Shown here in pieces: positions 12,796 through 51,867 of a stretch of DNA of 64,000 nucleotides. Under the pieces are notes generated by a model that did not search any database, was not told where the DNA came from, and worked only from the letters and a program-made list of their open reading frames with translations. Source of the DNA: a virus (taxonomy: Duplodnaviria > Caudoviricetes). The stretch lies in IMG/VR virus record IMGVR_UViG_3300025674_000014. One strand, given 5' to 3'. A program made the translations under genes and the position numbers. Numbering within the stretch: the first letter of the stretch is position 1; each line of letters opens with the position of its first letter.

Positions 12796-13923
12796 TTATT
12801 GTTTTGGAAGTAATTTATTTTTTAGTAAATAGTCGATAATTAATGGATTACCTACGCTGTTAAAAGCATCATTATATGCTTTATCGGGTGGTACCCCTTG
12901 TCTAAATTTATCAACAAAAATATCTAATATAATATTTGCCAGGTGAGCAGCAGTTGTAATAGGTTTTCTTCTTTTTAGAATATCACTATATTTTGGTATA
13001 CCGGCTGCTTCTTGCTCTCTTGTACTTGAAAGCCCTGTAAAATGACCAGTTTTAGGGTCAATAGATACAGATTGACCGAAAAGATTAGCAACTTGCTGAT
13101 TTAAATTAGTATCTTTATCTCTTGGATATATATAAGTGTTTCTATAGTTTTGTATAGCTCTTTGTTGTTCAATACCAGTTTTTTTATCATATATATCAAG
13201 TTTACCACCAGTACCTTTTATAAACTTACTAGCTGCAGCATAAGGGTTACCTGCTCCTGATCTAGCCCAGTTTTCTGCATTTCTAGCTGCAGTAGCAGCT
13301 TTTCCTAATAAACCTTGTTTACTAAATGGGTCTACAGCTTTAGCGCCATATTCTAATGCTTTACCTAAACCTTTAAAACCTTTTTTGACGAAATTTTTAA
13401 AAGTTGATGGTTGATTAACATTAGGTGTAGGTTGTTGCTGTTGTTGAACAGGTTGAACAGGTTGAGGAGCGGGTGCTGGTTGTGGTGCTGGTTGAGGTTG
13501 TGATGCTGGTGCTGGTGCTGGTGCTGGTAATTGGTTAGGATCTACTACTTCACCTTGTGTTAATTTTTTTCTTTCCGGATTTTCACCTGTACTTCTACCT
13601 GCGGGTTTTGCTCCATATAATGGATCTCCTGAATCAGGATCGGAATATGTAAACTTTACGCTTGGGTCCTGAGGTAAATCATCTTGTATATCGTCGCTTG
13701 AAAAAGATCTAGAATAAGTTTTAGAATCATTATCTTTATCTTCTATCTTTTGAAGTCTATTCCTAGGTTCAATTTCATTATTTTTTTTAAGTGAATTTTT
13801 ATCCTTATCCTTAAATTCGTCATCATCTTCTTTAGTAGGGCCAATATACTTTATTTCACTTAAAGTAACATATTTCTCAAATAAATTGTGAGAGTCTTTA
13901 TCCACGTAAATATTTAATCTCAA
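12796..13923 (-). CDS. hypothetical late protein with acidic region and Pro/Gln-rich linker
   Basis: Last gene of TAAATA-led operon; LFE/LSE propeptide-like N-terminus. Confidence 0.55.
   Translation of the reverse strand: MRLNIYVDKDSHNLFEKYVTLSEIKYIGPTKEDDDEFKDKDKNSLKKNNEIEPRNRLQKIEDKDNDSKTYSRSFSSDDIQDDLPQDPSVKFTYSDPDSGDPLYGAKPAGRSTGENPERKKLTQGEVVDPNQLPAPAPAPASQPQPAPQPAPAPQPVQPVQQQQQPTPNVNQPSTFKNFVKKGFKGLGKALEYGAKAVDPFSKQGLLGKAATAARNAENWARSGAGNPYAAASKFIKGTGGKLDIYDKKTGIEQQRAIQNYRNTYIYPRDKDTNLNQQVANLFGQSVSIDPKTGHFTGLSSTREQEAAGIPKYSDILKRRKPITTAAHLANIILDIFVDKFRQGVPPDKAYNDAFNSVGNPLIIDYLLKNKLLPKQ
13431..13528. repeat. coding low-complexity microrepeat (GCTGGT tandem; PA/PQ linker)
   Basis: gctggt x4 at 13505-13528 plus ggttga/gttgaaca variants. 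Confidence 0.7.
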
Positions 13924-14555
13924 TCACTGATAAAAATAGTATTACAATGATTCCAGTGAACAATCTTAAAGAAGTTATTAATCCATTCTCCTCTTTCTGG
14001 ACCGTTCATAAGATAATAAGCATGTTCCCATACATCGCAACCTAGTATAGGTTTACCAGCATTACTCATAAGGGGATTATCTTGATTAGGAGTATGTACT
14101 ACTTCCAACCTATTATCTTTTTTAACCAACCATACCCACCCTGATCCAAACTGGGACTTGCCAGATTCAACGAACTCGTTCCTAAAGTTATTGAAGGAAC
14201 CGAAAGTGCTTTTAATTGCTTTACCGAGCTCGGATTTACCTTCAAATGGAGTCCCTCCTGGATGCATGTATTTCCAGAAGAGTGAGTGATTGTAGTAACC
14301 ACCAGCATTGTCTCTAACTTTATCATCGTATTTCTTAATATTCTTAATTAACTCAACAATAGGTGGTTTTGGTTTATTACCTAAAGCTTCATTTAATTTT
14401 TTGATGTAACCCTTATAATGAACATTATAATGAAAGTTCATCGTTTGTCTATTAATTACTGGTGCTAAGTCCTTTAATCCATAGGAAAGTTTTTCAGCAT
14501 AGTATTTTGCTGTATTAGCTTCTAATAATTGATATACTTTAGACTCGTAACTCAT
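13920..14555 (-). CDS. sodA: Fe/Mn superoxide dismutase, Mn-type signature, with N-terminal extension
   Basis: HYNVHY, NAGGYYNHSLFW, FGSGWVWL, PNQD, DVWEHAYY. Confidence 0.92.
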   Translation of the reverse strand: MSYESKVYQLLEANTAKYYAEKLSYGLKDLAPVINRQTMNFHYNVHYKGYIKKLNEALGNKPKPPIVELIKNIKKYDDKVRDNAGGYYNHSLFWKYMHPGGTPFEGKSELGKAIKSTFGSFNNFRNEFVESGKSQFGSGWVWLVKKDNRLEVVHTPNQDNPLMSNAGKPILGCDVWEHAYYLMNGPERGEWINNFFKIVHWNHCNTIFISD

Positions 14556-15172
14556 TTCTTCTTACCACCCTTCATATTAGCACACCAATGGTACATCTTT
14601 CCTTTTTCACCACCGGCTTTTTTAGCTTTTGCTCTTAATGAAGTAACAGAGCCTTTACAACTAGCTCCTGATCTTTTTACTCTACCGGGTCTGCTTTTAC
14701 CTTTAACTTTACCATCGGCGTAATTTTCATGAACACTACCTTCTACTTTTTTAAGCTTAGAGTAATATTTTGGATCTTCAGCTAGGTGTTGTAAAGCAAT
14801 AGTTTTAGCTGCTTTATCACTTGTAGTGTGTTCCTTTTCAACTTTTATACCCATGGCTAATTCTTTAGGATCAGCTTTAATATGTGGTCTTGGTTTAAGT
14901 TGTTCGTTTATTTTTTTAAGCTGAATTTCAGTCTTATCTAAAACATCACCCTTTTTATATGTAGGACCATCATTTAAGACTTTATAACGTATAAATTTAC
15001 CAATTGTGTTATTAGGTTCTTTTAATTTAAAGACTTTTAATACTTTACCTTTACTACCGTAATGATCACATTCTTTGTTTGTGTTTAAACAAAGATCACC
15101 AGGACGAAGTTCATTAGCGTCTAAATCAGTCTTTTCTAAGATTTTATTAATCTTATCATTAAAGAGGCTCAT
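14552..15172 (-). CDS. basic modular head protein (contains DUF5661-like module)
   Basis: MGIKVEKEHT...IALQHL.EDPKYYSKL; K/R-rich C-terminal module with HWC. Confidence 0.6.
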   Translation of the reverse strand: MSLFNDKINKILEKTDLDANELRPGDLCLNTNKECDHYGSKGKVLKVFKLKEPNNTIGKFIRYKVLNDGPTYKKGDVLDKTEIQLKKINEQLKPRPHIKADPKELAMGIKVEKEHTTSDKAAKTIALQHLAEDPKYYSKLKKVEGSVHENYADGKVKGKSRPGRVKRSGASCKGSVTSLRAKAKKAGGEKGKMYHWCANMKGGKKK

Positions 15173-27137: not shown

Positions 27138-27695
27138 GTGGCTAAGAAAAGTACAGATGATTTAGGTTTTGAAAAGGCTATACTTAAAGTATGTAGTTTA
27201 AGAGAAAAAAATCTTTATGGTCCTGCTTCTAAAGCCGCGGACGATCCTGAAACCGGTATTGTTATTAAACAAAAACCGGCCTTCTTTGTTATTAAGGACT
27301 GTGCTACTATTGCTAAACGATATATGTTTATCATGTGTTACGGTTCCTTAACTGATCCAATTGGGCAACTAAAAGGTAAAGTAAGTGTTGAGGATATTGA
27401 GAATTTTGTATCTAGAAGTCGTAATAAAGCTAATTATGAAACTCGTCAATTACTCAACCTTATTTTTTCTGATATTAATAGTTATATACCTGGTTTAAGA
27501 GAAACTGGTGCTGATGAGTTAGATATTAACTTTGATACTATTGATGAAGAAAATGTATACGGTGATTACGAAGATTTAGGTAATGAACGTATTAAAGAAA
27601 TGGAAAAACAACAGGAGATTCAAAAATCCAAAATCGATTTGAATAATGATCAAGCTGTTGTTGATAAATTAGTTGAAGTATTTGTACTAGACTAA
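27138..27695 (+). CDS. hypothetical protein
   Basis: GTG start 5 nt after TAAATA; acidic C-terminal half. Confidence 0.55.
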   Translation: MAKKSTDDLGFEKAILKVCSLREKNLYGPASKAADDPETGIVIKQKPAFFVIKDCATIAKRYMFIMCYGSLTDPIGQLKGKVSVEDIENFVSRSRNKANYETRQLLNLIFSDINSYIPGLRETGADELDINFDTIDEENVYGDYEDLGNERIKEMEKQQEIQKSKIDLNNDQAVVDKLVEVFVLD

Positions 27696-28129
27696 ACTTC
27701 TTCCTTATCTACATCGATAAGTTTATCAATTTTTGATACAAAATCTTTTCCAACAAGTACTGGGTACTCATTTTCTGATCTATCAGCTATAGAAAAAGGA
27801 ACGTCTTTATATTTTTTACCGTCAAATACAATATCGAATAAAACCACAGGTCTTTCTTCTTTATTACCTGAACCAATATGTATAACAACGGTATCTACTA
27901 CTTGCTTTTTAAGTTTTTTGTTGTTAACGGTACCTATAATAATATTATCACCGCGTTTACTTAATATATCACCGTGTAATACGTTATAAGCTCCATTACC
28001 TGAATCTACTTTAGCTTCAACATCACCTACTGAATCAATAGTAATAGGTTCAACTAAGCCGATAACATCATTATCGGCTATTTCGTTTAAAAAGTAGTTT
28101 CTATATATTGTATTAAACCCTTTATTCAT
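27692..28129 (-). CDS. retropepsin-like peptidase (RimK-associated/Zn_protease-like)
   Basis: AKVDSGNG (D-S/T-G), ERPVV, YPVLVGKDF; likely start 28129. Confidence 0.7.
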   Translation of the reverse strand: MNKGFNTIYRNYFLNEIADNDVIGLVEPITIDSVGDVEAKVDSGNGAYNVLHGDILSKRGDNIIIGTVNNKKLKKQVVDTVVIHIGSGNKEERPVVLFDIVFDGKKYKDVPFSIADRSENEYPVLVGKDFVSKIDKLIDVDKEEV

Positions 28130-28307
28130 CGTTTTTTCGTGACTCAAGAATATTTTTTCTTTCGTCTCTTGCTAGTTTAACTAAATCTGCTAAAGCTTTA
28201 CGTGCTCTAGTAGAAGCAGACTTATTATTCTTTTCAGTAAATAAGTCAATATTTTTAACATAAGATGCTACTAAGTCCAAAATTTCTTGTTTTTTAGATT
28301 CTGACAT
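28122..28307 (-). CDS. histone H1-like Hc1-family nucleoid protein
   Basis: NKSASTRARKAL.DL.KLA...RK pattern of the Hc1 N-terminal domain. Confidence 0.6.
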   Translation of the reverse strand: MSESKKQEILDLVASYVKNIDLFTEKNNKSASTRARKALADLVKLARDERKNILESRKNDE

Positions 28308-28372: not shown

Positions 28373-28380
28373 ATATGTAC

Positions 28381-29136
28381 ATGAAGAAACTTATTTTTTC
28401 TGTATTATTGGCTGCCGTTACTACTGCTGGTAACGCGCAGGTTAGTGTTGATGCAGGCTATACCTCTGATTTTACAATCGCTGGTACAGCAAGAGCAAAG
28501 GACACAGCTGTCATTGGAATCACGGGGGCAAAGGCTTTAGGAAAAGGATTTACTCTTTACGGGTTTAATTACTTCTTGCCAACAAATGACGGACGTTCTA
28601 AATCTTATACTGATCATCCAGGTTCGGGTCATCAGCATGTAGATGGTATTAAGAATGCTCTTGAAACTAGTAGTCAAAACCATTTTGGTGTTGGACTTGC
28701 TTATGACGTTAATTCACTCGGTGATTTTTCTTTCACCGCTGACGTTCAAGCTGTTTATCACTTGGTAAACGGTCCTCTTCAGGATTCTTTCCAGTATGGA
28801 ATTGGTGCAACATTTGATAGCCTTCCTTTAATTAGTAAGGTTGCAAGTGTTTCTGTTTACTACATGGAAGATATTGATCTTGAAATGGATGGTTTTCAGA
28901 TTGGTTTGAGTAGAGTCTTTGAAAACGTGTTAGTTGATAACGTTAATTTGACTCCTAAGGCCGGTGTCTATTTGTTTGATAGTTTTGATGCTTATTATGC
29001 TTCATTGAGAGCTGATTATACTAAGTATGCTATCAGACCTTATGTTCAGGTAAGTTATTTTGATAACGACTTGACTGGAGATCTTGCACTTGACAATGAT
29101 GTTCAGTATACGGTCGGTCTTAACTATTCCTTCTAA
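28381..29136 (+). CDS. outer membrane beta-barrel protein (TIGR02001/porin-like)
   Basis: Signal peptide MKKLIFSVLLAAVTTAGNA|Q; alternating amphipathic strands; C-terminal YTVGLNYSF BAM-type signal. Confidence 0.75.
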   Translation: MKKLIFSVLLAAVTTAGNAQVSVDAGYTSDFTIAGTARAKDTAVIGITGAKALGKGFTLYGFNYFLPTNDGRSKSYTDHPGSGHQHVDGIKNALETSSQNHFGVGLAYDVNSLGDFSFTADVQAVYHLVNGPLQDSFQYGIGATFDSLPLISKVASVSVYYMEDIDLEMDGFQIGLSRVFENVLVDNVNLTPKAGVYLFDSFDAYYASLRADYTKYAIRPYVQVSYFDNDLTGDLALDNDVQYTVGLNYSF

Positions 29137-31449: not shown

Positions 31450-31977
31450 ATGAATAAAGACGAAAAGAGTTTACAAGAACTCTATGAAGCTACACTTTCA
31501 CCTCTTAACGGTGTAGGGTTAGGTCCTCAAGCTGAAGATTCAGCAGGTGGATTAGGAAGCCCTACTATGACCAAAATAGATGTTCAAGATGTTGAAACAC
31601 CTGAAGATGAAGAAAGGGAACAGATTGACGATCACGAGGTTGATATGGCTAAATCAGAGCTTTATAAATTAGCTGAATACGCCCCTAAGTTACTTGATCT
31701 AATTAAAAATTATGATGAATTAGAAGGATGGGTTCAAGCTAAACTTACCAAAGCAAGTGATTATGTTTCTGATATCTACCACTACCTTAAGTATGAAGAA
31801 GAAGCTAATGTACATAGTCATGAAGTTGATGAAGTGCCTCCTGCCCCTATGGGTGGTTGTGGTGGTCCTGCAGCAGTTGAAGTCGATATTGATGAACAAC
31901 CACCAGGTGAAATGGGTGATGAAGAGAAAAAGGGTGTAAACGACGAAGTTATTAAAATGTTAATGAGTCGTTTCTAA
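31450..31977 (+). CDS. acidic late protein (prohead core/internal protein-like)
   Basis: Start at 31450 (MNKDEKSLQELYEA) 5 nt after TATAAATA; MAKSEL...EGWVQAKLTKA.DY. Confidence 0.6.
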   Translation: MNKDEKSLQELYEATLSPLNGVGLGPQAEDSAGGLGSPTMTKIDVQDVETPEDEEREQIDDHEVDMAKSELYKLAEYAPKLLDLIKNYDELEGWVQAKLTKASDYVSDIYHYLKYEEEANVHSHEVDEVPPAPMGGCGGPAAVEVDIDEQPPGEMGDEEKKGVNDEVIKMLMSRF

Positions 31978-32585
31978 TCAGAAGGTAAGTTACTTAATTT
32001 ATCAAATACATAACCTACGAGGCTTTTATTGTTTCGTAGGTTTTCTGGTATATATGGTAACAAATTTTCGATCGAAAGGTTATCTAACAAGTCTCTGAAG
32101 TTGCTAGCACTAAATGCTCCAGATTCATCACCAACCACATCGGCGACATCTATATTAACTGTTACACCGGCGGGTAAACCTTTTAATATACCTGAATATC
32201 TAGCTTTATCATTTCCTTTACCACCAACACCAACTATAATTTGATCCCCTGGTAAAGCATCTTCTCTTACAAAGTCATAAACTTCACCTACTGCATTTTT
32301 AGCTGTGGTTACATTAACACCTCTTAACCCCATTTCAGCAACATAACGTCTTAAAATATCAGCTGCTACATCAGCTGGTACATATTTACCACCCGGGGTA
32401 TATCTTCTTGATTTAGGTGAAGGGTCGGTTACGATAACATTTACAATGCCATCTTGACCAACTTTATTTTTAAAGCTTTCAATTAACTTAAAATGACCAA
32501 GGTGAGGTGGTTTAAATGAACCAGGAAAAAGAACTATCTTTCTACCTGTTTGCTCTTTGATGAAAAACCACTTAAATGCTGTCAT
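31974..32585 (-). CDS. HIGH-superfamily nucleotidyltransferase (NadD/CoaD/cytidylyltransferase-like)
   Basis: FPGSFKPPHLGH, G..D..RY, SASNFR. Confidence 0.75.
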   Translation of the reverse strand: MTAFKWFFIKEQTGRKIVLFPGSFKPPHLGHFKLIESFKNKVGQDGIVNVIVTDPSPKSRRYTPGGKYVPADVAADILRRYVAEMGLRGVNVTTAKNAVGEVYDFVREDALPGDQIIVGVGGKGNDKARYSGILKGLPAGVTVNIDVADVVGDESGAFSASNFRDLLDNLSIENLLPYIPENLRNNKSLVGYVFDKLSNLPSD

Positions 32586-33921
32586 TTTTATTATTTAATG
32601 TTTTATACCATTCTATATAACATAGTTTAAAGTACTCTCTAAATTTTGTCAATAGATTTTCCATATAAGGTAACAAACAAACGTCTCCTTTATTATATGT
32701 TGATGGATCTACATTACAAGCTTTTTCAAATATACTATAGTCTACTTTTATATCTAAATTATCAACAAAGTCTTTTATTTTATCTCCAAATAAAATATCA
32801 AAAACAAAAAATTCAATATTATTAAATTTTTGAAGTAAAATAATGAAGAAATGGTATCTTATATTTTTTATTGTCTTGTCATAATCATTATGATCTAATT
32901 CAAAATATCTTTCATACCCTTCCTCAACTTGTTTCTTAATTAACTCGTCATCTGCATTAGTAAAAATGTTATCTTGAACTTGTATAATTTGTCTACAACC
33001 AAACATATCAACATTGTTATGTTCAATAAGATAATTATTAGCTCTTGTTACTTTTATACTCGGTAACCCAACAACACCAAACTCGGCATCTCTAATAGTG
33101 TTAAATACCAAACCATCCATTGATATACCAATACCTTTTTCACCTAATACTAAATCAGTTAAACTTTCATTACCATAAACTACATTTTTATAATGCACTT
33201 TTGTACTATCTTTTATAGCTCCAGTTACATTGTTTCTAATACTTGTATATAAGTTACCGTACCATATTAATTTACCGGGTTCAAAATTTGTTTTAAGTCT
33301 TTGTTCCCAAAGTTCGTCTGGTGAAGTATCTTTTATACTATAAAGTTTATGGAATGATTCACACATGAACCCTTGTTTACAAAATCTAAAATTTTTAAAT
33401 CGAGTTTCATCTTCTTCTTTAGGTGGTGTGTTATAACCAATAGAATGATAACATATGTTTTTATAATCTAATTCATCAACATAGAACCAATCTGGTTTAT
33501 CATGTATTTCACCGTAATAGAAGTTTTGCTCTTTTTGAAGATAAACAATTAAACGATCATCATAGTAACCTAACTCTTTTATGTCGTTTTCTATTTTAAA
33601 CTTACATTGTTTATGGTAGTTATTAACTAAACATTCTGGTATAATTAAAATACCGGGTTTTTGTTCTAAAAGATCTTTTTTAAGTAAGTCCCAATCTATC
33701 TCTACTATTTTACCTCCAAGATCAGGTGATATGTAACCACCCATACTATTTTCCCATAAGAAAGGACCGTCTTCATTAAGGAAGTAAATAAGATCGTAAT
33801 TGAATATAGTACAATCTGGTATAGGAATATAATCACCTAAACGTTGGTGATATTTTAAGAAGGACATAAAGTTACTTAACTGATTTGGCTTTAAATCCAG
33901 AACCACCTGGGTCCTTTTCAC
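32572..33921 (-). CDS. hypothetical protein
   Basis: 449 aa ORF; no recognised motif; true start uncertain (50-nt overlap upstream). Confidence 0.5.
   Translation of the reverse strand: MKRTQVVLDLKPNQLSNFMSFLKYHQRLGDYIPIPDCTIFNYDLIYFLNEDGPFLWENSMGGYISPDLGGKIVEIDWDLLKKDLLEQKPGILIIPECLVNNYHKQCKFKIENDIKELGYYDDRLIVYLQKEQNFYYGEIHDKPDWFYVDELDYKNICYHSIGYNTPPKEEDETRFKNFRFCKQGFMCESFHKLYSIKDTSPDELWEQRLKTNFEPGKLIWYGNLYTSIRNNVTGAIKDSTKVHYKNVVYGNESLTDLVLGEKGIGISMDGLVFNTIRDAEFGVVGLPSIKVTRANNYLIEHNNVDMFGCRQIIQVQDNIFTNADDELIKKQVEEGYERYFELDHNDYDKTIKNIRYHFFIILLQKFNNIEFFVFDILFGDKIKDFVDNLDIKVDYSIFEKACNVDPSTYNKGDVCLLPYMENLLTKFREYFKLCYIEWYKTLNNKNDSI
32592..32597 (-). promoter_or_regulatory. gp55-type late promoter (HIGH nucleotidyltransferase)
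   Basis: TAAATA, ATG 6 nt later. Confidence 0.65.
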
Positions 33922-35188
33922 TTCTAGGGTTGGTAAAATATGATGAAAAACTCATACCACCGTTACCGAAGTTAGCAGCAGGAGCAGATTGATCTTCTTC
34001 ATCAGAAACTTTAGGTCTATTAGAAGCTAATTTACCACCCATACCACTAAGAATAAAATCGCCGGTGATTTTAATAGAATTAGGATTACCTAACTCATCT
34101 TTACCGTATACGGTATCGGTTAAAACTATACCTTCATGTTTGTCGGCATCACCATAATTATCAGTTTTATAATTTCGTAAAATTTCTTGACCTAATTCCT
34201 TAGTAATATGATAAGTTAAAGCCCCTGCAACTGCAGTATTAATATCTTCTTTTTTAAATACACTATCTAAAGGTGTACCATTAAGTACGGTAAGATAAAC
34301 ATCTTTACTGACAGCACCTCTATCTTTACCGTCTAAAGTTTTAACTCTAATTTTTTTAGGTATACCTTCCCCAACTTCTTTAATCCAAGTTTTAAGAGGT
34401 TTGATTACTCTTTCATTATTATCAAACTGTACTGTAAATGGTTTGTTTAAAACACTATCAAAATTAGGTACACCTTTTTTAGTAACATATATACCGGTAA
34501 TAACTTCAAACCCATACTGATTAGCTATTTTATTAACCTTTTCTCTTAAACTATTTAAAGCTTCATTATCATAGTTAATAACTCTAGATGTTTCCTTTAC
34601 ATTAGGTTTAGGTTTTAAACCAGGTCTTGTTAATTCACCTTTTCTATTTCGTTTTTCAACAAACTGATTAACGCTATGAAAAGCTATTATCTTTTTATCG
34701 CCATAATCTATAACATTTTCTTGACCGTCAATGTATTCGGTGTTTAAAAATTTTGTTGGGTCATTCCACATACCTAATTTTTCTAAATCATTTTTAATAA
34801 GTGGAATTGATTTATCCATAATAGTAAGAATTGTTTTACCTTTATCGATTAATCCATGACCCTCAGGAAAACGAGATGTAAGTCCATCTAATGTAATACC
34901 ATGTACATCTTCTACTTTTTGAGAACCTCTATCTAAAGCAAATTGTCTTTTAAATGTTTCATTACGTTCATCATTAACAACCTTTAAACTTAAATTAACA
35001 CCATCCAGTTTAACCGTAGCTGTACCTTTGTTAAGAATATCAACGCTGTTATATAACACATCTACTAAATCATCGACAGTGTTTACTTCAGGTAAGTCAA
35101 AAGGGTGATACATATGACCAGCAGCACCGCCTTCATTAAGAACGGTGTTGTTGTATGCTTCAAAAATTAGTTCTTGTTCAAATTTCAT
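33872..35188 (-). CDS. RNA ligase-like covalent nucleotidyltransferase (DUF6267-like)
   Basis: EGGAAGHM.HP; motif I KLDG, III LNTEY, IIIa IAFH, IV EGIVL, V IKITG. Confidence 0.65.
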   Translation of the reverse strand: MKFEQELIFEAYNNTVLNEGGAAGHMYHPFDLPEVNTVDDLVDVLYNSVDILNKGTATVKLDGVNLSLKVVNDERNETFKRQFALDRGSQKVEDVHGITLDGLTSRFPEGHGLIDKGKTILTIMDKSIPLIKNDLEKLGMWNDPTKFLNTEYIDGQENVIDYGDKKIIAFHSVNQFVEKRNRKGELTRPGLKPKPNVKETSRVINYDNEALNSLREKVNKIANQYGFEVITGIYVTKKGVPNFDSVLNKPFTVQFDNNERVIKPLKTWIKEVGEGIPKKIRVKTLDGKDRGAVSKDVYLTVLNGTPLDSVFKKEDINTAVAGALTYHITKELGQEILRNYKTDNYGDADKHEGIVLTDTVYGKDELGNPNSIKITGDFILSGMGGKLASNRPKVSDEEDQSAPAANFGNGGMSFSSYFTNPRSEKDPGGSGFKAKSVK

Positions 35189-36774
35189 GATTTTAATGTA
35201 ATACTAGTACCATGGTGTCTTTTTATATCCATACCCATGTCTACATTTAAAATTCCCTTATTAATATAATCTAAAATTTTGTTAAAAGAGTTAACAAATA
35301 TTTCTTTTTTACCTTCCCCGTCAAATGAAAATACCAAAGCATCTAATTTATTATTACAAAAAAGTAAATAATTGAATTTTTCATGAGCATGATATTGACA
35401 AATTTGTAAAGAAGCTATTATAGCTTCCAAAATATTTTTATTTTTATGTCTTTGCATTTCATCTAATAATTCAGGTGTTAATATTTCATTTAAACCTTCT
35501 TTATAAGATTTTCTCTCTAAAACTGTTTCACTTTCACTACTTAGTTGTAAAAATGCATCAACAATGTGTTTTTTATCTAAATTCCAATCATGAAGAAAAA
35601 ATGCAGGCACTACATGATTAGTAGTGTCATTTCTGTCAATTTTTAATTTATTTTTTTTGGCTCTAAGAAATGATTGTACGCTACTTATAAAATTATTTTT
35701 TTTATTATTAACTTGTTTAGTTGTTTCTTTATTTAATTTATCAATTAAAGCAGGGATTTGTTCGTGTTCTATCTCGTCTTGTTTACCAAAAAGTAAATTG
35801 TTAAAAGATATTTCAAAATCATCATAATTAAATTCTTTATCATTTACTACTAAATTATGTAAATTTTTTACAAGATCGTATAACTCGTTTAACTTGTTTG
35901 AATAAAAATTAAATTCATTCTGATTTTTAGATTTTTTTTCTATATTATTTTTAGGTTGAATGTAATTTAATAAATCATTTCTTGATTTTACTAACTCTTG
36001 ATATTTTTCTCTAACTTCATGTGCAGTATGTACATTATTATTAGTTTTAGATAAAAGTTTTTGAATATATTCAATTACTTCTGCAGGCTTACCGGTTGCT
36101 CCAGCTCTACCTTTTTCACCTTTTACCTCAATAGTACCAAATCCAGGTACAAAAACATCACCTTTTTGACCTTTGTTTTTCAATGATTGTACTGCATCAG
36201 AAAAAAATGTAAAACAAATTTCGCCTTTACCTACCCCTACACCACTTACCGCTCCTTCTACATCATAAACAGCTTTTATAGTTTCTTTAACATTGGAAAA
36301 TGTATCATTAACTAATTTAGTACTAAAAGAATCATAAAGACTAAAAATATCACCACTACTAGCAGAAGATTGTAAATCTGAAGAAAATTTTGTAAGTTTA
36401 TTTTTGTTATCTTTTATTAATTTAAGACTAAAATTATTAACATCTGACGTATCTTCAATAGCATTAACGACAGGAATTAATATTTTTGAATTATAAGATG
36501 TATTTTCACCCTTTTTATTATTTGAACTCTTCCAACCACCTTCTTGTAAAATTTCATCAATGTAACGAAATGATCCACCGGATCTATTAGCAACCTGTCT
36601 TTGTAATTTTTTAGCTTCTTCATCAGGTAAATACCCAACTATTTTTTGTTCACCGTCATCTGTTTTAAAAATAATTTGAGTATCTTCACCTATTACTCTT
36701 TGTCTTTGTAATTTGGGTATCTTTTTAAAAGCGTTATCGCCGTATATATCTGCTAATGATCTATATTTGCTCAT
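35185..36774 (-). CDS. protein with PD-(D/E)xK nuclease-like core
   Basis: GVGKGE..F.......GDV......IEVKG. Confidence 0.5.
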   Translation of the reverse strand: MSKYRSLADIYGDNAFKKIPKLQRQRVIGEDTQIIFKTDDGEQKIVGYLPDEEAKKLQRQVANRSGGSFRYIDEILQEGGWKSSNNKKGENTSYNSKILIPVVNAIEDTSDVNNFSLKLIKDNKNKLTKFSSDLQSSASSGDIFSLYDSFSTKLVNDTFSNVKETIKAVYDVEGAVSGVGVGKGEICFTFFSDAVQSLKNKGQKGDVFVPGFGTIEVKGEKGRAGATGKPAEVIEYIQKLLSKTNNNVHTAHEVREKYQELVKSRNDLLNYIQPKNNIEKKSKNQNEFNFYSNKLNELYDLVKNLHNLVVNDKEFNYDDFEISFNNLLFGKQDEIEHEQIPALIDKLNKETTKQVNNKKNNFISSVQSFLRAKKNKLKIDRNDTTNHVVPAFFLHDWNLDKKHIVDAFLQLSSESETVLERKSYKEGLNEILTPELLDEMQRHKNKNILEAIIASLQICQYHAHEKFNYLLFCNNKLDALVFSFDGEGKKEIFVNSFNKILDYINKGILNVDMGMDIKRHHGTSITLKS

Positions 36775-36775
36775 A

Positions 36776-37141
36776 TTAATAATCTATATCAGGGTCGTCT
36801 GAATAAGAATTTATAAACTGTTTAAGTTTAGACAATATTTCACGACCATTTTCTTCATTAATTTCTTCATCTAAGATGGAAGGAGGAATTGTACCTTCGG
36901 TTGGTTCTAAAACTAATGCTTTACGAATAAGTCTGATCAATTCAACTTCACCTTCAGGTGTTAACTGCTTTACTTCGGGTTCTGGTTCGGTAATTGTTTC
37001 AGACTGTTGAGCAACCATTTCCTGCCCTGGCTGAGCAGGAGGTACAGACATTTGAGCGGTTGGATCAACAGGCTGTTCTTCAAGCATTTTATACTTGTTA
37101 CCAATTAAACTAAAAAATTTGCTGTGCGTTTTTATTTTCAT
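36776..37141 (-). CDS. hypothetical acidic late protein
   Basis: Coupled in late operon; MLEE motif. Confidence 0.55.
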   Translation of the reverse strand: MKIKTHSKFFSLIGNKYKMLEEQPVDPTAQMSVPPAQPGQEMVAQQSETITEPEPEVKQLTPEGEVELIRLIRKALVLEPTEGTIPPSILDEEINEENGREILSKLKQFINSYSDDPDIDY

Positions 37142-37641
37142 TGTAATTGAGCTTTAATTTGTTTATTCATATCTGAATATTTTTTAGCAGCAAGCCCTAC
37201 TAACCTATCTCTTTCTTTAACTGCTGCAGCCGCGGCACCTCTACTACCAGCACCTACACCAAGAAAAGCACCTGCTTTTTGTAATTTATTAGCTTTTTCA
37301 GCAGCCCTTTCAACATGATCATCTAAATCATAGTTGGATGTGTTAGCTTTTATTTTTGGATCTATACTACCTTTACCGGTAGGGTCAGACATAGAAATTT
37401 CATCTTCAGGAAATTCTTCTTTCTTGGGAGCAAGTAAACTATCTACTTTAAAAATTAATTTGTTAATAGCTTTAAATAGTTCTGGGTTATCTCTATGCTT
37501 TTCTACAGCAATTTTAACTACGTCATCATCATTAATTAAATCTCTGATAGATTCTAAAACATCTCTACCAATAGAAATTTGATCTTCGTCTTCTGAGACA
37601 TAGTTTTCAAACCCTTCTTTAATGGCTTGGTCGAACTTCAT
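37138..37641 (-). CDS. hypothetical late protein
   Basis: TAAATA promoter; MKFDQAIKEG. Confidence 0.55.
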   Translation of the reverse strand: MKFDQAIKEGFENYVSEDEDQISIGRDVLESIRDLINDDDVVKIAVEKHRDNPELFKAINKLIFKVDSLLAPKKEEFPEDEISMSDPTGKGSIDPKIKANTSNYDLDDHVERAAEKANKLQKAGAFLGVGAGSRGAAAAAVKERDRLVGLAAKKYSDMNKQIKAQLQ

Positions 37642-37646
37642 ATCTA

Positions 37647-37656
37647 TATTTATTTA
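37647..37656 (-). promoter_or_regulatory. gp55-type late promoter (37641-33872 operon)
   Basis: TAAATAAATA, ATG 5 nt later. Confidence 0.7.
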
Positions 37657-38216: not shown

Positions 38217-38244
38217 ATTTTAACGTGTCTGCAGACTAGTTCAA
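38217..38244 (-). promoter_or_regulatory. early/middle-type promoter for ORF 38210
   Basis: TTGAAC-N16-TAAAAT, GTG 6 nt later. Confidence 0.75.
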
Positions 38245-38657
38245 CTCTTTTTTATCTTACCTAGTCTTAAGTTAATTATTCCGTTGTAGAATTTATCCTC
38301 GTTTAACAGTACGTCGTTATCAAACTGTAACTTTGCTTCATAATATGCTAATTCAGATTTAGAATTACAGAATCTAACTATTTCGAACATAAACTTATCT
38401 TTACCGTACTCAATTAGATCGTGATTAACCTTATCAGATGAAGATGTGTATGTTTTCCAATCTGTTTCTTTAACTACATGTCTTCGGCGTGATTTACCTT
38501 TAAGAGGAGGAAGTTTTGCTATTTTTTGAGCCTGTTTTTTACCGATATATTTTTTACCAGTAACAGTATTGGTTATAATGTAGATAAAGCCGAAAAAGTT
38601 TTCAGGTATATCTTCTTTTTTACCATTATAAGTCCAATGCCCTAAATTATCAACCAT
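38241..38657 (-). CDS. GIY-YIG family endonuclease (Seg-like)
   Basis: GFIYIITN...KKYIGKK, YTSSS, F.FEI, E..LQ....VL..FYN; likely start 38657. Confidence 0.75.
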   Translation of the reverse strand: MVDNLGHWTYNGKKEDIPENFFGFIYIITNTVTGKKYIGKKQAQKIAKLPPLKGKSRRRHVVKETDWKTYTSSSDKVNHDLIEYGKDKFMFEIVRFCNSKSELAYYEAKLQFDNDVLLNEDKFYNGIINLRLGKIKKS

Positions 38658-38859
38658 TTTTCTTCTTTTTCTTTTTACGCTTCTTTTTAGTATTACGTCG
38701 TTGAACACTTCCTAATACTTTAGGCATTCTATAATCACCTGGAGCGTAATTATCACCAGAAAATTGGGACGATGTCCATGTACCTAAAGCCCCACCGGGT
38801 CCAGCTACATTACCATCTTCGTCAAGCAACTTTAAAAATATGTTTTTAAACGTTGACAT
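38650..38859 (-). CDS. small late protein with poly-K/R tail
   Basis: TATAAATA promoter; MSTFKNIFLKLLDED...KKKRKKKKKK. Confidence 0.6.
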   Translation of the reverse strand: MSTFKNIFLKLLDEDGNVAGPGGALGTWTSSQFSGDNYAPGDYRMPKVLGSVQRRNTKKKRKKKKKKNG

Positions 38860-49278: not shown

Positions 49279-51867
49279 ATGTATAGAAATGTAGTGTATG
49301 AATCTGTTAAGGAACAAATGCGGTTGTTTACCTGGGACGAGGATGGTAACCGTATTCAAGTTACTCAAAGCTACAATCCATATCTTTATATTGAACCTAA
49401 GGATAATAGACATAAGAATGCTGAGTCTATCTACAAAACCCCTTTACGTAAACTAATATTCAAACGTGGTTCTGATCGTCGACGTTTTATCAAACAGAAT
49501 AACGTTAAGAGGTTGTTTGAAAACCTACCTGAAAAGCAACAGTTCTTATTAGATAACTTCTGGCAAGTAAATGAAACTTCAGACTTTACTAAGAATGAGA
49601 TCAAGATGTTATTGCTTGATATCGAGACTTATTCACCAGATAGCTTTCCTAATATCGAAAATGCTAATCACCCGATTAACGTTATTACCGTTTATGATAA
49701 TCTTGAGAAACGGTTTTATACCTGGGGTACTAAACCATATAACGGTAAAGGTAGGCCTGATCTTGAGTACAAATACTGTGTAAGTGAACGTCAACTGTTT
49801 ACTGAGTTTCTTAACTACCTTGAGAAAGACTATCCTGATATTCTAAGTGGTTGGAACTCTGAGTTCTTCGATATTCCATATATTATCAAACGTTGTGAAC
49901 GTATTATGGGTGAGGAAGAGATGAAAAGACTATCACCGGTGGGTAACGTTCATTATAGAAGTATTCAAGGTCAGTTCGGTAGACAACAAATCAAATGGTA
50001 CATTGATGGTATTGCATTGCTTGATTACTTGGACGTGTATCGTAAGTTTGCTCCATTGCGTGAGTCATATAAACTTGATGCAATTGGTGAACTTGAGTTA
50101 AATGAACGTAAGGTTGGGTTTGAAGGCATGGACCTTGCAACGTTATCTGATGTTGATTGGGACAAGTTTATTGATTACAACATTCAGGACGTAAACATTC
50201 TTGTTAAACTTGAAGAAAAGTTACAATACATTGGTTTGGTACGTATGTTAGCTTACGTTGGTTGTACTACCTTTGATGCTGCAATGGGTGCACTATCAGT
50301 AATCAATGGTGCGTTTTGTATTCGTGCTAGACATCGTAAGCAAGTCATTCCTACTTTTATTCGTGGTGAAGATACCGGTAAGAACCCAGGTGCATATGTT
50401 GGTGAACCTCAACAAGGGTTTCAAAACTATGTACTATCCTTTGACGCTAATAGTCTATACCCGAATGTGATGATTACCCTTAACTTATCACCAGAAACTA
50501 AGATTGGTAAGATCTTAGAAAAAACTGATGACATGATAGTTATGGAACTAGTTAACGGTAAAGTTAAAGAATACTCAATACCGGTGTTTAGTAAAATGAT
50601 TAAGGAACATAATCTTACAATCAGTAAAGCTAACATTGTATTCCATCAGAAAGAAATGGGTCTTATTCCTGAAATTGTTGATTACTATTATCATAAACGT
50701 AAAGGATTTAAAGATGAGTATGTTGACTTGAAGAAGCAGCATGCTGCTATGAAAAAGTCAGACCCAGACTATGATAAAGTCGGGGTTGAACTACAACGTG
50801 CTGGTACTAAACAATTAACAGTAAAGATTCTAATCAATTCGATTTATGGATACTTTGGTAACAAGAACGCTCCTATTGGTGATGACGATATTGCATCATC
50901 AGTTACATTGAGTGGTCAAGCAGTGATTAAACAAAGTAACGTAATCATTAGAGACTTTATCAAACTAAAGACAGGACTAACTGATGAAGATCTTAAGAAG
51001 AAAGACCCTATTATTTACAACGACACGGATTCATCATATGCCTCGATTGAGTTACTTATCAAACATCTGGGACTTACCTTCAAAAATGAAAAAGGAGAAG
51101 TACATGAGGACATTTATAAACTTGAAGATGAGTTGGTTGGATACCTGAATAAGGAAATCATGATATGGGGTAAGAAGACGTTCAATAGTAAAGACTGTAG
51201 ATTCGTTTTCAAGCGTGAGTGTATTGGTGAAGTTGGTATCTTCTTACAGAAAAAACGTTACGTTCTAAACATCCTTGATGATGAAGGTGCAAAGGTTAAC
51301 AAGACGAAATACACTGGGGTAGAAGTTGTTAGAACTACCTTGCCTAACTCGTTGAAACCGTATATGAAAAACGTTATTGAGATCATGCTTAGTACCCAGG
51401 ATTATCAAAAGACTAATGAAGCAATGAAAATCGTGTATGATAAGTTTAAGGAACTAAGTATATCAGAAATTGCATCTGTCATGGGCATTAAGGGATATGA
51501 AAAGTATGCTGCTCAATGTAACGGTATGAGTGTTGTAAAAGGTATGCCTATACATTGTAAGGCTGCCTATTACTATAATAACTTACTTAAAGCTAATAAA
51601 CTTGGTAAGAAGTATGAATCAATCGGTTCTGGCGACAAGGTTAGGTTCTTTTATGTAAAGAAACCAAATAAGTACAACATCGATAGTATCGCGTTTAAGT
51701 ATGAGTGGCCTGAAGAGTTTGATAAGTTCTTTAAACCTGATTATGATAAGATTTTTGAGAAGTTAATCTTTCAACCTATCGAACGTTTTTATCAAGCAGT
51801 TAGTTGGAAGTGTTATTTACCTAATCAAGCAGTGCAGTGTGATTTGTTTAGTCTATTAGGAGAATAA
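49279..51867 (+). CDS. 43: family B DNA polymerase gp43
   Basis: DIET, GWNSEFFDIPY, YNIQDV, SFDANSLYP, K.LINS.YG, YNDTDS, KKRY. Confidence 0.97.
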   Translation: MYRNVVYESVKEQMRLFTWDEDGNRIQVTQSYNPYLYIEPKDNRHKNAESIYKTPLRKLIFKRGSDRRRFIKQNNVKRLFENLPEKQQFLLDNFWQVNETSDFTKNEIKMLLLDIETYSPDSFPNIENANHPINVITVYDNLEKRFYTWGTKPYNGKGRPDLEYKYCVSERQLFTEFLNYLEKDYPDILSGWNSEFFDIPYIIKRCERIMGEEEMKRLSPVGNVHYRSIQGQFGRQQIKWYIDGIALLDYLDVYRKFAPLRESYKLDAIGELELNERKVGFEGMDLATLSDVDWDKFIDYNIQDVNILVKLEEKLQYIGLVRMLAYVGCTTFDAAMGALSVINGAFCIRARHRKQVIPTFIRGEDTGKNPGAYVGEPQQGFQNYVLSFDANSLYPNVMITLNLSPETKIGKILEKTDDMIVMELVNGKVKEYSIPVFSKMIKEHNLTISKANIVFHQKEMGLIPEIVDYYYHKRKGFKDEYVDLKKQHAAMKKSDPDYDKVGVELQRAGTKQLTVKILINSIYGYFGNKNAPIGDDDIASSVTLSGQAVIKQSNVIIRDFIKLKTGLTDEDLKKKDPIIYNDTDSSYASIELLIKHLGLTFKNEKGEVHEDIYKLEDELVGYLNKEIMIWGKKTFNSKDCRFVFKRECIGEVGIFLQKKRYVLNILDDEGAKVNKTKYTGVEVVRTTLPNSLKPYMKNVIEIMLSTQDYQKTNEAMKIVYDKFKELSISEIASVMGIKGYEKYAAQCNGMSVVKGMPIHCKAAYYYNNLLKANKLGKKYESIGSGDKVRFFYVKKPNKYNIDSIAFKYEWPEEFDKFFKPDYDKIFEKLIFQPIERFYQAVSWKCYLPNQAVQCDLFSLLGE

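Follow-up and report, generated by a model that had tools for sequence, protein, structure and literature searches.

A probable head-cargo operon of an uncultured T4-like marine phage, with a coupled ligase-fold protein and HIGH adenylyltransferase-like protein

The stretch analyzed here, called the window, is 64,000 nucleotides of viral DNA (IMG/VR record IMGVR_UViG_3300025674_000014; Duplodnaviria, Caudoviricetes). Between positions 31974 and 36774 its minus strand encodes an adenylyltransferase-like protein (A), a ligase-fold protein (B) and a nuclease-like protein (C), with a further conserved protein (X) between B and A. Our reading, which we consider moderately probable, is that these genes belong to a late operon of a T4-like phage whose products would be tagged by leaders, trimmed by a protease and ejected from the head as cargo, including a functional unit of B and A and a probable nuclease, C. 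New in this work are an architecture count over 84 viral loci and the rule by which the Gly-Gly N-terminus of B would be exposed. A first-pass annotation, made from the letters without database searches, had singled out three open reading frames (ORFs) as a candidate injected module, and all three are present on the minus strand (A, B and C below; aa, amino acids; a slash marks the end of a leader or a predicted cut).

31974-32585, minus strand: protein A, 203 aa, HIGH-superfamily (PF01467) adenylyltransferase-like, leader MTAFKWFFIKE/Q (Pfam and motifs)
32572-33867, minus strand: protein X, 431-aa conserved protein, optional insert between B and A (ORF with revised start)
33872-35188, minus strand: protein B, 438 aa, ligase/capping-fold nucleotidyltransferase (motifs, model and fold matches)
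35009-35011, minus strand: codon of Lys60, predicted nucleotidyl-accepting lysine of B (invariant in the alignment of 32 relatives)
35185-36774, minus strand: protein C, 529 aa, with a 30-residue leader, an E/D/ExK core, a helical-bundle insert at about 247-378 and a Q457xxxY461 helix (alignment and model)

Proteins B and A

The search for B recovered 193 relatives, 32 of which were aligned (38-84% identity). Motifs I, III, IIIa, IV and V stand in the order of the ligase/capping superfamily. Invariant in the alignment are K60, D62 and G63 (KLDG), N149 and E151 (LNTEY), H171 (IAFH), G353 and V355 of EGIVL, where E352 is kept in at least 90%, and K373, T375 and G376 (IKITG). The segment D86-R87-G88-S89 (DRGS) and the N-terminal GGAAGHMxHPF are invariant as well. 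Motif V has a single Lys (K-I-T-G) instead of KxK. The leader covers residues 1-19, and the predicted mature N-terminus is GGAAGHMYHPFD.

The AlphaFold model of B (mean predicted local distance difference test score, pLDDT, 82; predicted template modelling score, pTM, 0.77) has the fold of a ligase/capping nucleotidyltransferase domain, and its top structural matches are RNA and DNA ligases. T4 Rnl2 is the best Foldseek match (E = 1.1e-3), and T4 Rnl1 and the fungal tRNA ligase Trl1 are also among the nearest folds. Pfam and PHROGs scans gave no match for B, PF09414 (RNA_ligase) included, and neither the single sequence nor the profile matched the sequences of solved structures. One relative (P0109) spans the whole PF09414 profile at 14.3 bits against a cutoff of 27 (E = 0.047). 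The sole local alignment between B and T4 Rnl2, not significant alone, pairs Lys60 with the Lys of Rnl2 EKIHGTN (alignment residue 35). The ESM Atlas cluster structurally nearest to B (TM 0.75) partly carries DUF6267 (PF19782), and PF01467 fusions occur in its sister clusters. Motifs IIIa and IV are separated by an insert of about 180 residues. Motif V is followed in the model by a single short helix and a tail (385-438) that is disordered yet conserved, with neither an OB domain nor an Rnl2-type C-terminal helical domain. On its motifs and model, B is most likely an RNA-ligase-2-like covalent nucleotidyltransferase, for which a covalent nucleotide adduct is predicted.

Protein A matches PF01467 (CTP_transf_like) with 28.6 bits against a cutoff of 21 (E = 1.8e-6). 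Residues P21, G22, F24, P26, G30 and H31 (PGSFKPPHLGH) and R164 (SASNFR) are invariant in 18 aligned sequences, and H28 is kept in at least 90% of them. The family profile matches phosphopantetheine adenylyltransferase (PPAT; 6e-10), the archaeal nicotinamide mononucleotide adenylyltransferase (NMNAT) MJ0541 (5e-9) and the NadM/NadR NMNATs; since the NMNAT match is no better than that to PPAT, the substrate is not readable from the profile. Some relatives carry the NadM-like motif GRFQPFHKGH. As judged from its sequence, A is an NMNAT/PPAT-like HIGH adenylyltransferase. The first-pass annotation had called B RNA-ligase-like from its five covalent nucleotidyltransferase motifs, and A a HIGH nucleotidyltransferase from HLGH and SASNFR. 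Both calls are borne out by the alignments, the Foldseek result and the PF01467 score, and the predicted catalytic residues are conserved, with Lys60 of B and H31 of A invariant and H28 nearly so.

Coupling of B and A

Architectures were counted in 84 viral loci (80 from IMG/VR, three metagenome loci and the window), scanned with hidden Markov models of A, B and C. B-A fusions are found in 29 loci and A-B fusions in 16, while 26 have a split pair with A downstream and 13 have B alone, several of these on truncated contigs. B and A are thus fused, in either order, or adjacent in 71/84 loci. In many relatives of B the protein is about 650 aa long and has PF01467 at the C-terminus, and Microcystis phage Mel-JY01, the only cultured phage matched by B in tblastn, has the opposite order, A-B; A gave no match in the same search. 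IMG/VR holds 388 tblastn-confirmed matches to the module, on uncultured marine phage contigs. Because fusions occur in both orders and adjacency is constant, the comparative evidence that B and A act in one pathway, or as one functional unit, is strong. Prediction of a B and A complex scored 0.00, which is uninformative either way.

Two loci (L087:2596-7044 and L081:3634-7083) encode polyproteins of 1149-1482 aa with the A domain N-terminal and the B domain C-terminal, separated by DUF192 (PF02643) and long unassigned stretches. DUF192 is the only extra domain detected in the large B/A polyproteins and gives no functional clue.

Protein X starts at ATG 33867, not at GTG 33921, 4 nucleotides past the stop of B. 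An X-sized insert is present in 13 of the 26 split pairs, and X was recovered in 10 of these 13 (418-431 aa, 70 invariant residues); the other 13 split pairs lack it. Two related loci differ in this respect, X being missing in L003 and present in L004. No family for X was found in Pfam, PHROGs or Atlas. The possibility that X is a mobile insertion splitting a fused B-A gene was rejected, as it is a conserved protein in 10 of 13 insert-bearing loci and the split forms have leaders of their own.

Protein C

The full HMMER scan found 219 relatives of C. In 43 aligned sequences, with 17-41% identity, the sole invariant residues are G182, E185, G205, D206, E216, K218 and Y461. The model (pLDDT 86; secondary structure by DSSP) has a helix at 185-191 and strands at 207-209 and 213-218. 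E185 lies at the helix start, D206 at a strand start and E216/K218 on the next strand, and the Q457xxxY461 helix follows the helical-bundle insert. A PD-(D/E)xK core is expected to look like this, with the acidic residues and the Lys of ExK placed on a beta hairpin and a Glu further upstream on a helix, and C is fairly likely to be a nuclease of this type. An Atlas feature search, as a lead only, gave type II restriction endonucleases as all of the nearest named clusters (score 0.79). C is directly upstream of B in 33/84 loci, including 23 of the 26 split-pair loci and 6 B-A fusion loci.

Against a nuclease stands the lack of any match between C and a solved nuclease, or of a significant match to a Pfam nuclease family. 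Whole-model fold searches (PDB, VIA-wide, AFDB clusters, Atlas and BFVD) returned only helical-bundle look-alikes and unnamed phage proteins, being swamped because of the helical insert. The profile of the core by itself gave nothing significant against PDB and Pfam, and one member of the family reached E = 0.19, which is noise, against the putative PD-(D/E)XK family DUF4420. Pfam and PHROGs scans gave no match for C, and tblastn against cultured phages found nothing. The earlier PD-(D/E)xK call for C was thus sustained as to its GE...GD...IEVK motif core, invariant in the family, but not as to a solved nuclease fold, and motifs are what carries it. C could instead be a structural, scaffold-like protein inside the head, its conserved charged residues binding DNA or a head protein. 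Such a role, which is possible although clearly the lesser prospect for C, would suit the long helical bundle that makes up about half of the protein, the failed nuclease searches and the acidic, low-complexity operon neighbours. Seven invariant residues in 43 distant sequences are, however, an active-site-like pattern untypical of a scaffold, their placement at the start of a helix and on a beta hairpin matches PD-(D/E)xK cores, and the restriction-endonuclease neighbours, weakly, point the same way.

Leaders and the junction before B

The internal proteins of T4 use a capsid-targeting sequence, and gp21 cuts after Glu, at ITE-6 and LTE-619 in Alt (PMC5694885). IPII and IPIII of T4 (NC_000866) start with MKTYQEFIAE/A, and IPI starts with MKTFKEF (in full MKTFKEFTSTTTPVSTITE/A). 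The leader of A in the window is MTAFKWFFIKE/Q, and relatives of A have MKTFKQFFLGE/, MKSFKQYFLKE/ and MKFDQLVNE/. B starts with MKFEQELIFE/AYNNTVLNE/GG, and its relatives with MKTFKQYYNTILNE/GG and MTTFKEFYQLISE/GG. The leader of C, MSKYRSLADIY...VIGE/D, is of another type; it has 30 residues, and no other part is as conserved within the close family, although it has low confidence in the model and is missing in several relatives that start within a few residues of D31. The candidate gp21-type sites predicted from these sequences are LNE/GG in B, IKE/Q in A and IGE/D in C. The leader type of A and B recurs on the 167-aa protein of the first operon gene, two small basic proteins, a DUF5661 protein, a RimB-like protease and a superoxide dismutase. 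There are 10 leader-like starts in the window, 7 of them at 30.6-38.9 kb, by a pattern picked after the data had been seen.

The sequence GGAAGHM of B is preceded by [LIV]-x-Glu in 60/84 loci, in 41 distinct contexts; every one of the 16 A-B fusions has this junction, at an internal site. In 21/84 loci GGAAGHM directly follows the initiator Met, and only two loci have another context. These Met starts are genuine: the frame is closed by a stop 0-11 codons ahead of them, and in several cases a GGAG-like purine-rich stretch stands just before the ATG. Where a B-A fusion has a leader, another leader-like segment, internal and with LxE at its end, precedes the A domain. A free Gly-Gly N-terminus of B would accordingly be exposed in three ways, by Met removal, by leader cleavage and by polyprotein cleavage. 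The junction pattern is what a T4-type head protease cutting after Glu would give, and by analogy with T4, packaging and protease processing are well supported by comparison.

Published virion data concern distant relatives of A. The cytidylyltransferase S-SZBM1_140 was detected in CsCl-purified virions (PMC9146016), and its translation from OL473597 starts with MRFRQFIIE/AVAAAAKK. It has the HxGH region in common with A (hhalign probability 83%). A cytidylyltransferase was also found in S-CREM2 virions (ORF154), and such enzymes are often detected in cyanophage virions (PMC10665884). Enzymes of NAD and ADP-ribose metabolism have been argued to be often packaged in the heads of myoviruses (PMC9503650). 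The B profile is unrelated by hhalign to S-SZBM1 ORFs 139, 141 and 142, so that this cytidylyltransferase has no B-like neighbour there.

Several points weigh against packaging. No leader at all precedes 21/84 B genes, and the A-B fusions begin straight with the A domain; either packaging is not universal, or another signal is used in those phages. No gene for a gp21-type prohead protease lies within the 64-kb window. For this phage, and for all relatives of B and C, packaging is read from genes alone. The excess of [LI]xE at residues 8-20 (26 of 80 window genes against 12 expected, P = 7e-5) was obtained with a leader pattern and a residue window that were both picked after the data had been seen. 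The proteins could be ordinary late cytoplasmic enzymes that are never packaged, with N-terminal segments serving fold or regulation and a structural Glu before GGAAGHM. The leaderless MGG starts and A-B fusions would fit this, as would the short helix at residues 6-15 of the B model and the warning by the authors of the S-CREM2 study that abundant late proteins may co-purify with virions (PMC10665884). We regard it as unlikely. The leader is dispensable in the leaderless forms, yet whatever precedes the domain elsewhere ends in [LIV]xE, one leader type is shared by unrelated proteins of the window (A, B, small basic proteins and superoxide dismutase) and is close to that of IPI-III, and the leader region of B has low model confidence (pLDDT 41-45).

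Other leader-bearing proteins were found in the window. The Fe/Mn superoxide dismutase (13920-14555, minus strand) is an enzyme with a capsid-targeting-like leader, a 17-residue extension MSYESKVYQLLE/ANTAK, its Pfam domain starting at residue 18. The 206-aa protein at 14552-15172 (minus strand) has the leader MSLFNDKINKILE/K and a DUF5661 domain (PF18905), which an Atlas cluster contains fused to PF01467 cytidyltransferase-like proteins in other phages. At 27692-28307 (minus strand), the gene for a 61-aa histone H1-like Hc1 protein (PF07432) runs into the start of that for a RimB/Zn_protease-like protein (PF05618), whose leader is MNKGFNTIYRNYFLNE/; the pair is also present in L003 and L004. 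The 175-aa acidic protein at 31450-31977 (plus strand), convergent with A and with ATAAATA just upstream, starts with MNKDEKSLQELYE/A and ends with ...MLMSRF, like the C-terminus of the T4 scaffold gp22 (...KVASRF). It may be a scaffold or core protein.

The operon and its genomic setting

Six genes on the minus strand abut or overlap from 37641 to 31974, in the order 167-aa protein, 121-aa protein, C, B, X and A. The features ahead of C are as follows.

37647-37653, minus strand: ATAAATA, T4-late-promoter-like motif, 5 nucleotides ahead of the first ATG of the operon
37138-37641, minus strand: first operon gene, 167-aa acidic protein, leader MKFDQAIKE/G (ORF and leader scan)
36776-37141, minus strand: 121-aa acidic, Pro/Glu-rich protein (ORF list)

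The motif ATAAATA resembles the T4 late promoter, TATAAATA. It also occurs 5-6 nucleotides before the ATGs at 38859, 31427 and 15172 (minus strand) and 31450 (plus strand). The strict form TATAAATA is rarer than chance in the window, and only the shorter form ATAAATA is positioned before starts. The window has 16 ATAAATA sites, many of them 5-15 nucleotides upstream of a start codon, for example 37647, 38866, 31433 and 15178 (minus strand) and 31438 and 22369 (plus strand). Sites so near to start codons suggest that the mRNA leaders of late genes are very short or absent. By analogy with T4, the segment 37641-31974 is most likely a late operon, with the stretch studied as its distal part, and its set of products is most likely head-internal cargo. 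The late operons and propeptides of the first-pass annotation agree with this layout and with the T4-like leaders, the operon by analogy only.

The 167-aa protein has no family match in Pfam or PHROGs and no similarity to T4 Inh. A gene of 116-122 aa occupies the position of the 121-aa protein in the related loci L003 and L004, a match in size.

The window has a G+C content of about 31% and encodes a gp43-type DNA polymerase (49279-51867), a gp46-like SbcC subunit, a gp41-like helicase and UvsW. Its polymerase is only about 32% identical to that of the nearest cultured T4-like phages, the cyanomyoviruses. By these genes, the source phage is a deep uncultured branch of the T4-like marine myophages. 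In T4, uvsW and segE adjoin a divergent block inh-hoc-24.3-24.2-rnlB. The window has a similar layout, in which a divergent late operon comes after uvsW, includes a segE-like GIY-YIG gene and has B at its end. From this neighbourhood and its fold, B may be the positional counterpart of T4 rnlB, though sequence similarity is not significant.

The SegE-type GIY-YIG gene (PF19835, E = 4e-34) lies at 38241-38708 (minus strand), inside the late operon. Its position is fixed in the window, L003 and L004, which is unusual for a supposedly mobile homing endonuclease. A stand-alone gene within the late region (28375-29136, plus strand) encodes a protein with a signal peptide and the look of an outer-membrane beta-barrel (MKKLIFSVLLAAVTTAGNAQ...).

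Proposed mechanism

In the mechanism that we infer from T4, the leader would dock each product on the scaffolding core during prohead assembly, and a gp21-type head protease would cut after (L/I/V)-x-Glu. The trimmed proteins would stay with the packaged DNA and be ejected into the cell. B would need its free Gly-Gly N-terminus. With lower confidence, B and A together might adenylylate or seal a nucleic-acid 5' end, in an ATP- or NAD-linked reaction, as soon as infection begins, and C might cut unmodified DNA while the phage's own DNA is spared.

A more specific and tentative proposal, which we rate as rather doubtful, is that B and A form an undescribed two-enzyme system of nucleotidyl transfer. 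A would make or recycle an adenylate donor and B, via Lys60, would adenylylate, cap or seal the 5' end of the incoming phage genome or of host RNA, delivery in the capsid allowing action before phage gene expression. The N-terminal Gly of B would take part in catalysis or substrate binding, and such a role would explain why the glycine is exposed by three routes.

Two independent jobs, as the first-pass annotation had suggested with B an RNA ligase repairing host-cleaved tRNA and A an NMNAT rebuilding NAD+ against NADase defences, would agree with the folds near T4 Rnl1, T4 Rnl2 and Trl1, with the NadM and NadR profile matches and the NadM-like motif in relatives of A, and with phage NAD+ salvage being an established counter-defence (reviewed in PMC9503650), but they are improbable as stated: fusion or adjacency in 71/84 loci points to one pathway, the module genes include no end-healing kinase or phosphatase, needed for T4-type tRNA repair, the scan of the module genes and fusion proteins showed no NAMPT- or Nudix-type partner, and the top profile matches of A are PPAT, not NMNAT. 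The injected module proposed in the same annotation fares better without these separate tRNA and NAD+ roles; the T4-like leaders, the cut-site junction in three architectures and the virion match for a leader-bearing cytidylyltransferase (PMC9146016) speak for it.

The preferred reading, that of leader-tagged head cargo, places a T4-type tag on a conserved enzyme pair and a nuclease-like protein in hundreds of uncultured marine phage contigs. If it is true, environmental T4-like phages deliver a ready-made toolkit for modifying nucleic acids, the 'cytidyltransferase' matches in cyanophage virion proteomes are explained, and a large DUF6267-like family gains a testable role. The junction rule is a simple sequence signature for predicting head cargo processed by the protease.

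Comparison with known systems

In T4, the proteins known to be tagged and injected are a few small anti-restriction proteins and one enzyme, an ADP-ribosyltransferase. The genes described here resemble T4 IPI-III and Alt in a leader of the kind MKT[YF][QK]EF... ending in hydrophobic-x-Glu, in probable late expression and in unrelated proteins that share only the leader, and Alt is a precedent for an enzyme as such cargo. They differ in that the proposed cargo, made up of a ligase-fold enzyme, a HIGH adenylyltransferase and a nuclease-like protein, is not known from T4 heads, in that packaging is deduced from genes, and in that relatives string modules into polyproteins joined at cut sites. The opinion in the first-pass annotation that no characterised equivalent exists was too strong, as T4 Alt and IPI-III are a known model and cytidyltransferases in cyanophage virions are published (PMC10665884).

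The virion cytidylyltransferases of cyanomyoviruses (S-SZBM1_140 and S-CREM2 ORF154) belong to the same superfamily as A and to T4-like phages, and S-SZBM1_140 has the same kind of leader. However, they are distant relatives, their neighbours are not B-like and their C-terminal part is other than that of A. With PPAT (CoaD) and the NadM/NadR NMNATs, A has in common the PGxFxPxHxGH and SxxxxR motifs and a size of about 200 residues, but it has a capsid-targeting-like leader and is coupled to the ligase-like B, whereas known NMNATs pair with Nudix or kinase domains.

B is like T4 Rnl2 (rnlB; PDB 2HVQ, 1S68), its top Foldseek match, in the KxDG-type Lys motif and the acidic residues of motifs III and IV. 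It differs in having no significant sequence similarity, no Rnl2 C-terminal domain, the insert of about 180 residues and one motif V Lys, and in its unique N-terminal GGAAGHMxHPFD and HIGH-transferase partner. DUF6267 (PF19782) is connected with the Atlas structural cluster nearest to B, although B scores nothing against the Pfam model. By analogy, the module would be a variant of the known T4 capsid-targeting cargo system in which a ligase-fold enzyme and an adenylyltransferase are tightly coupled.

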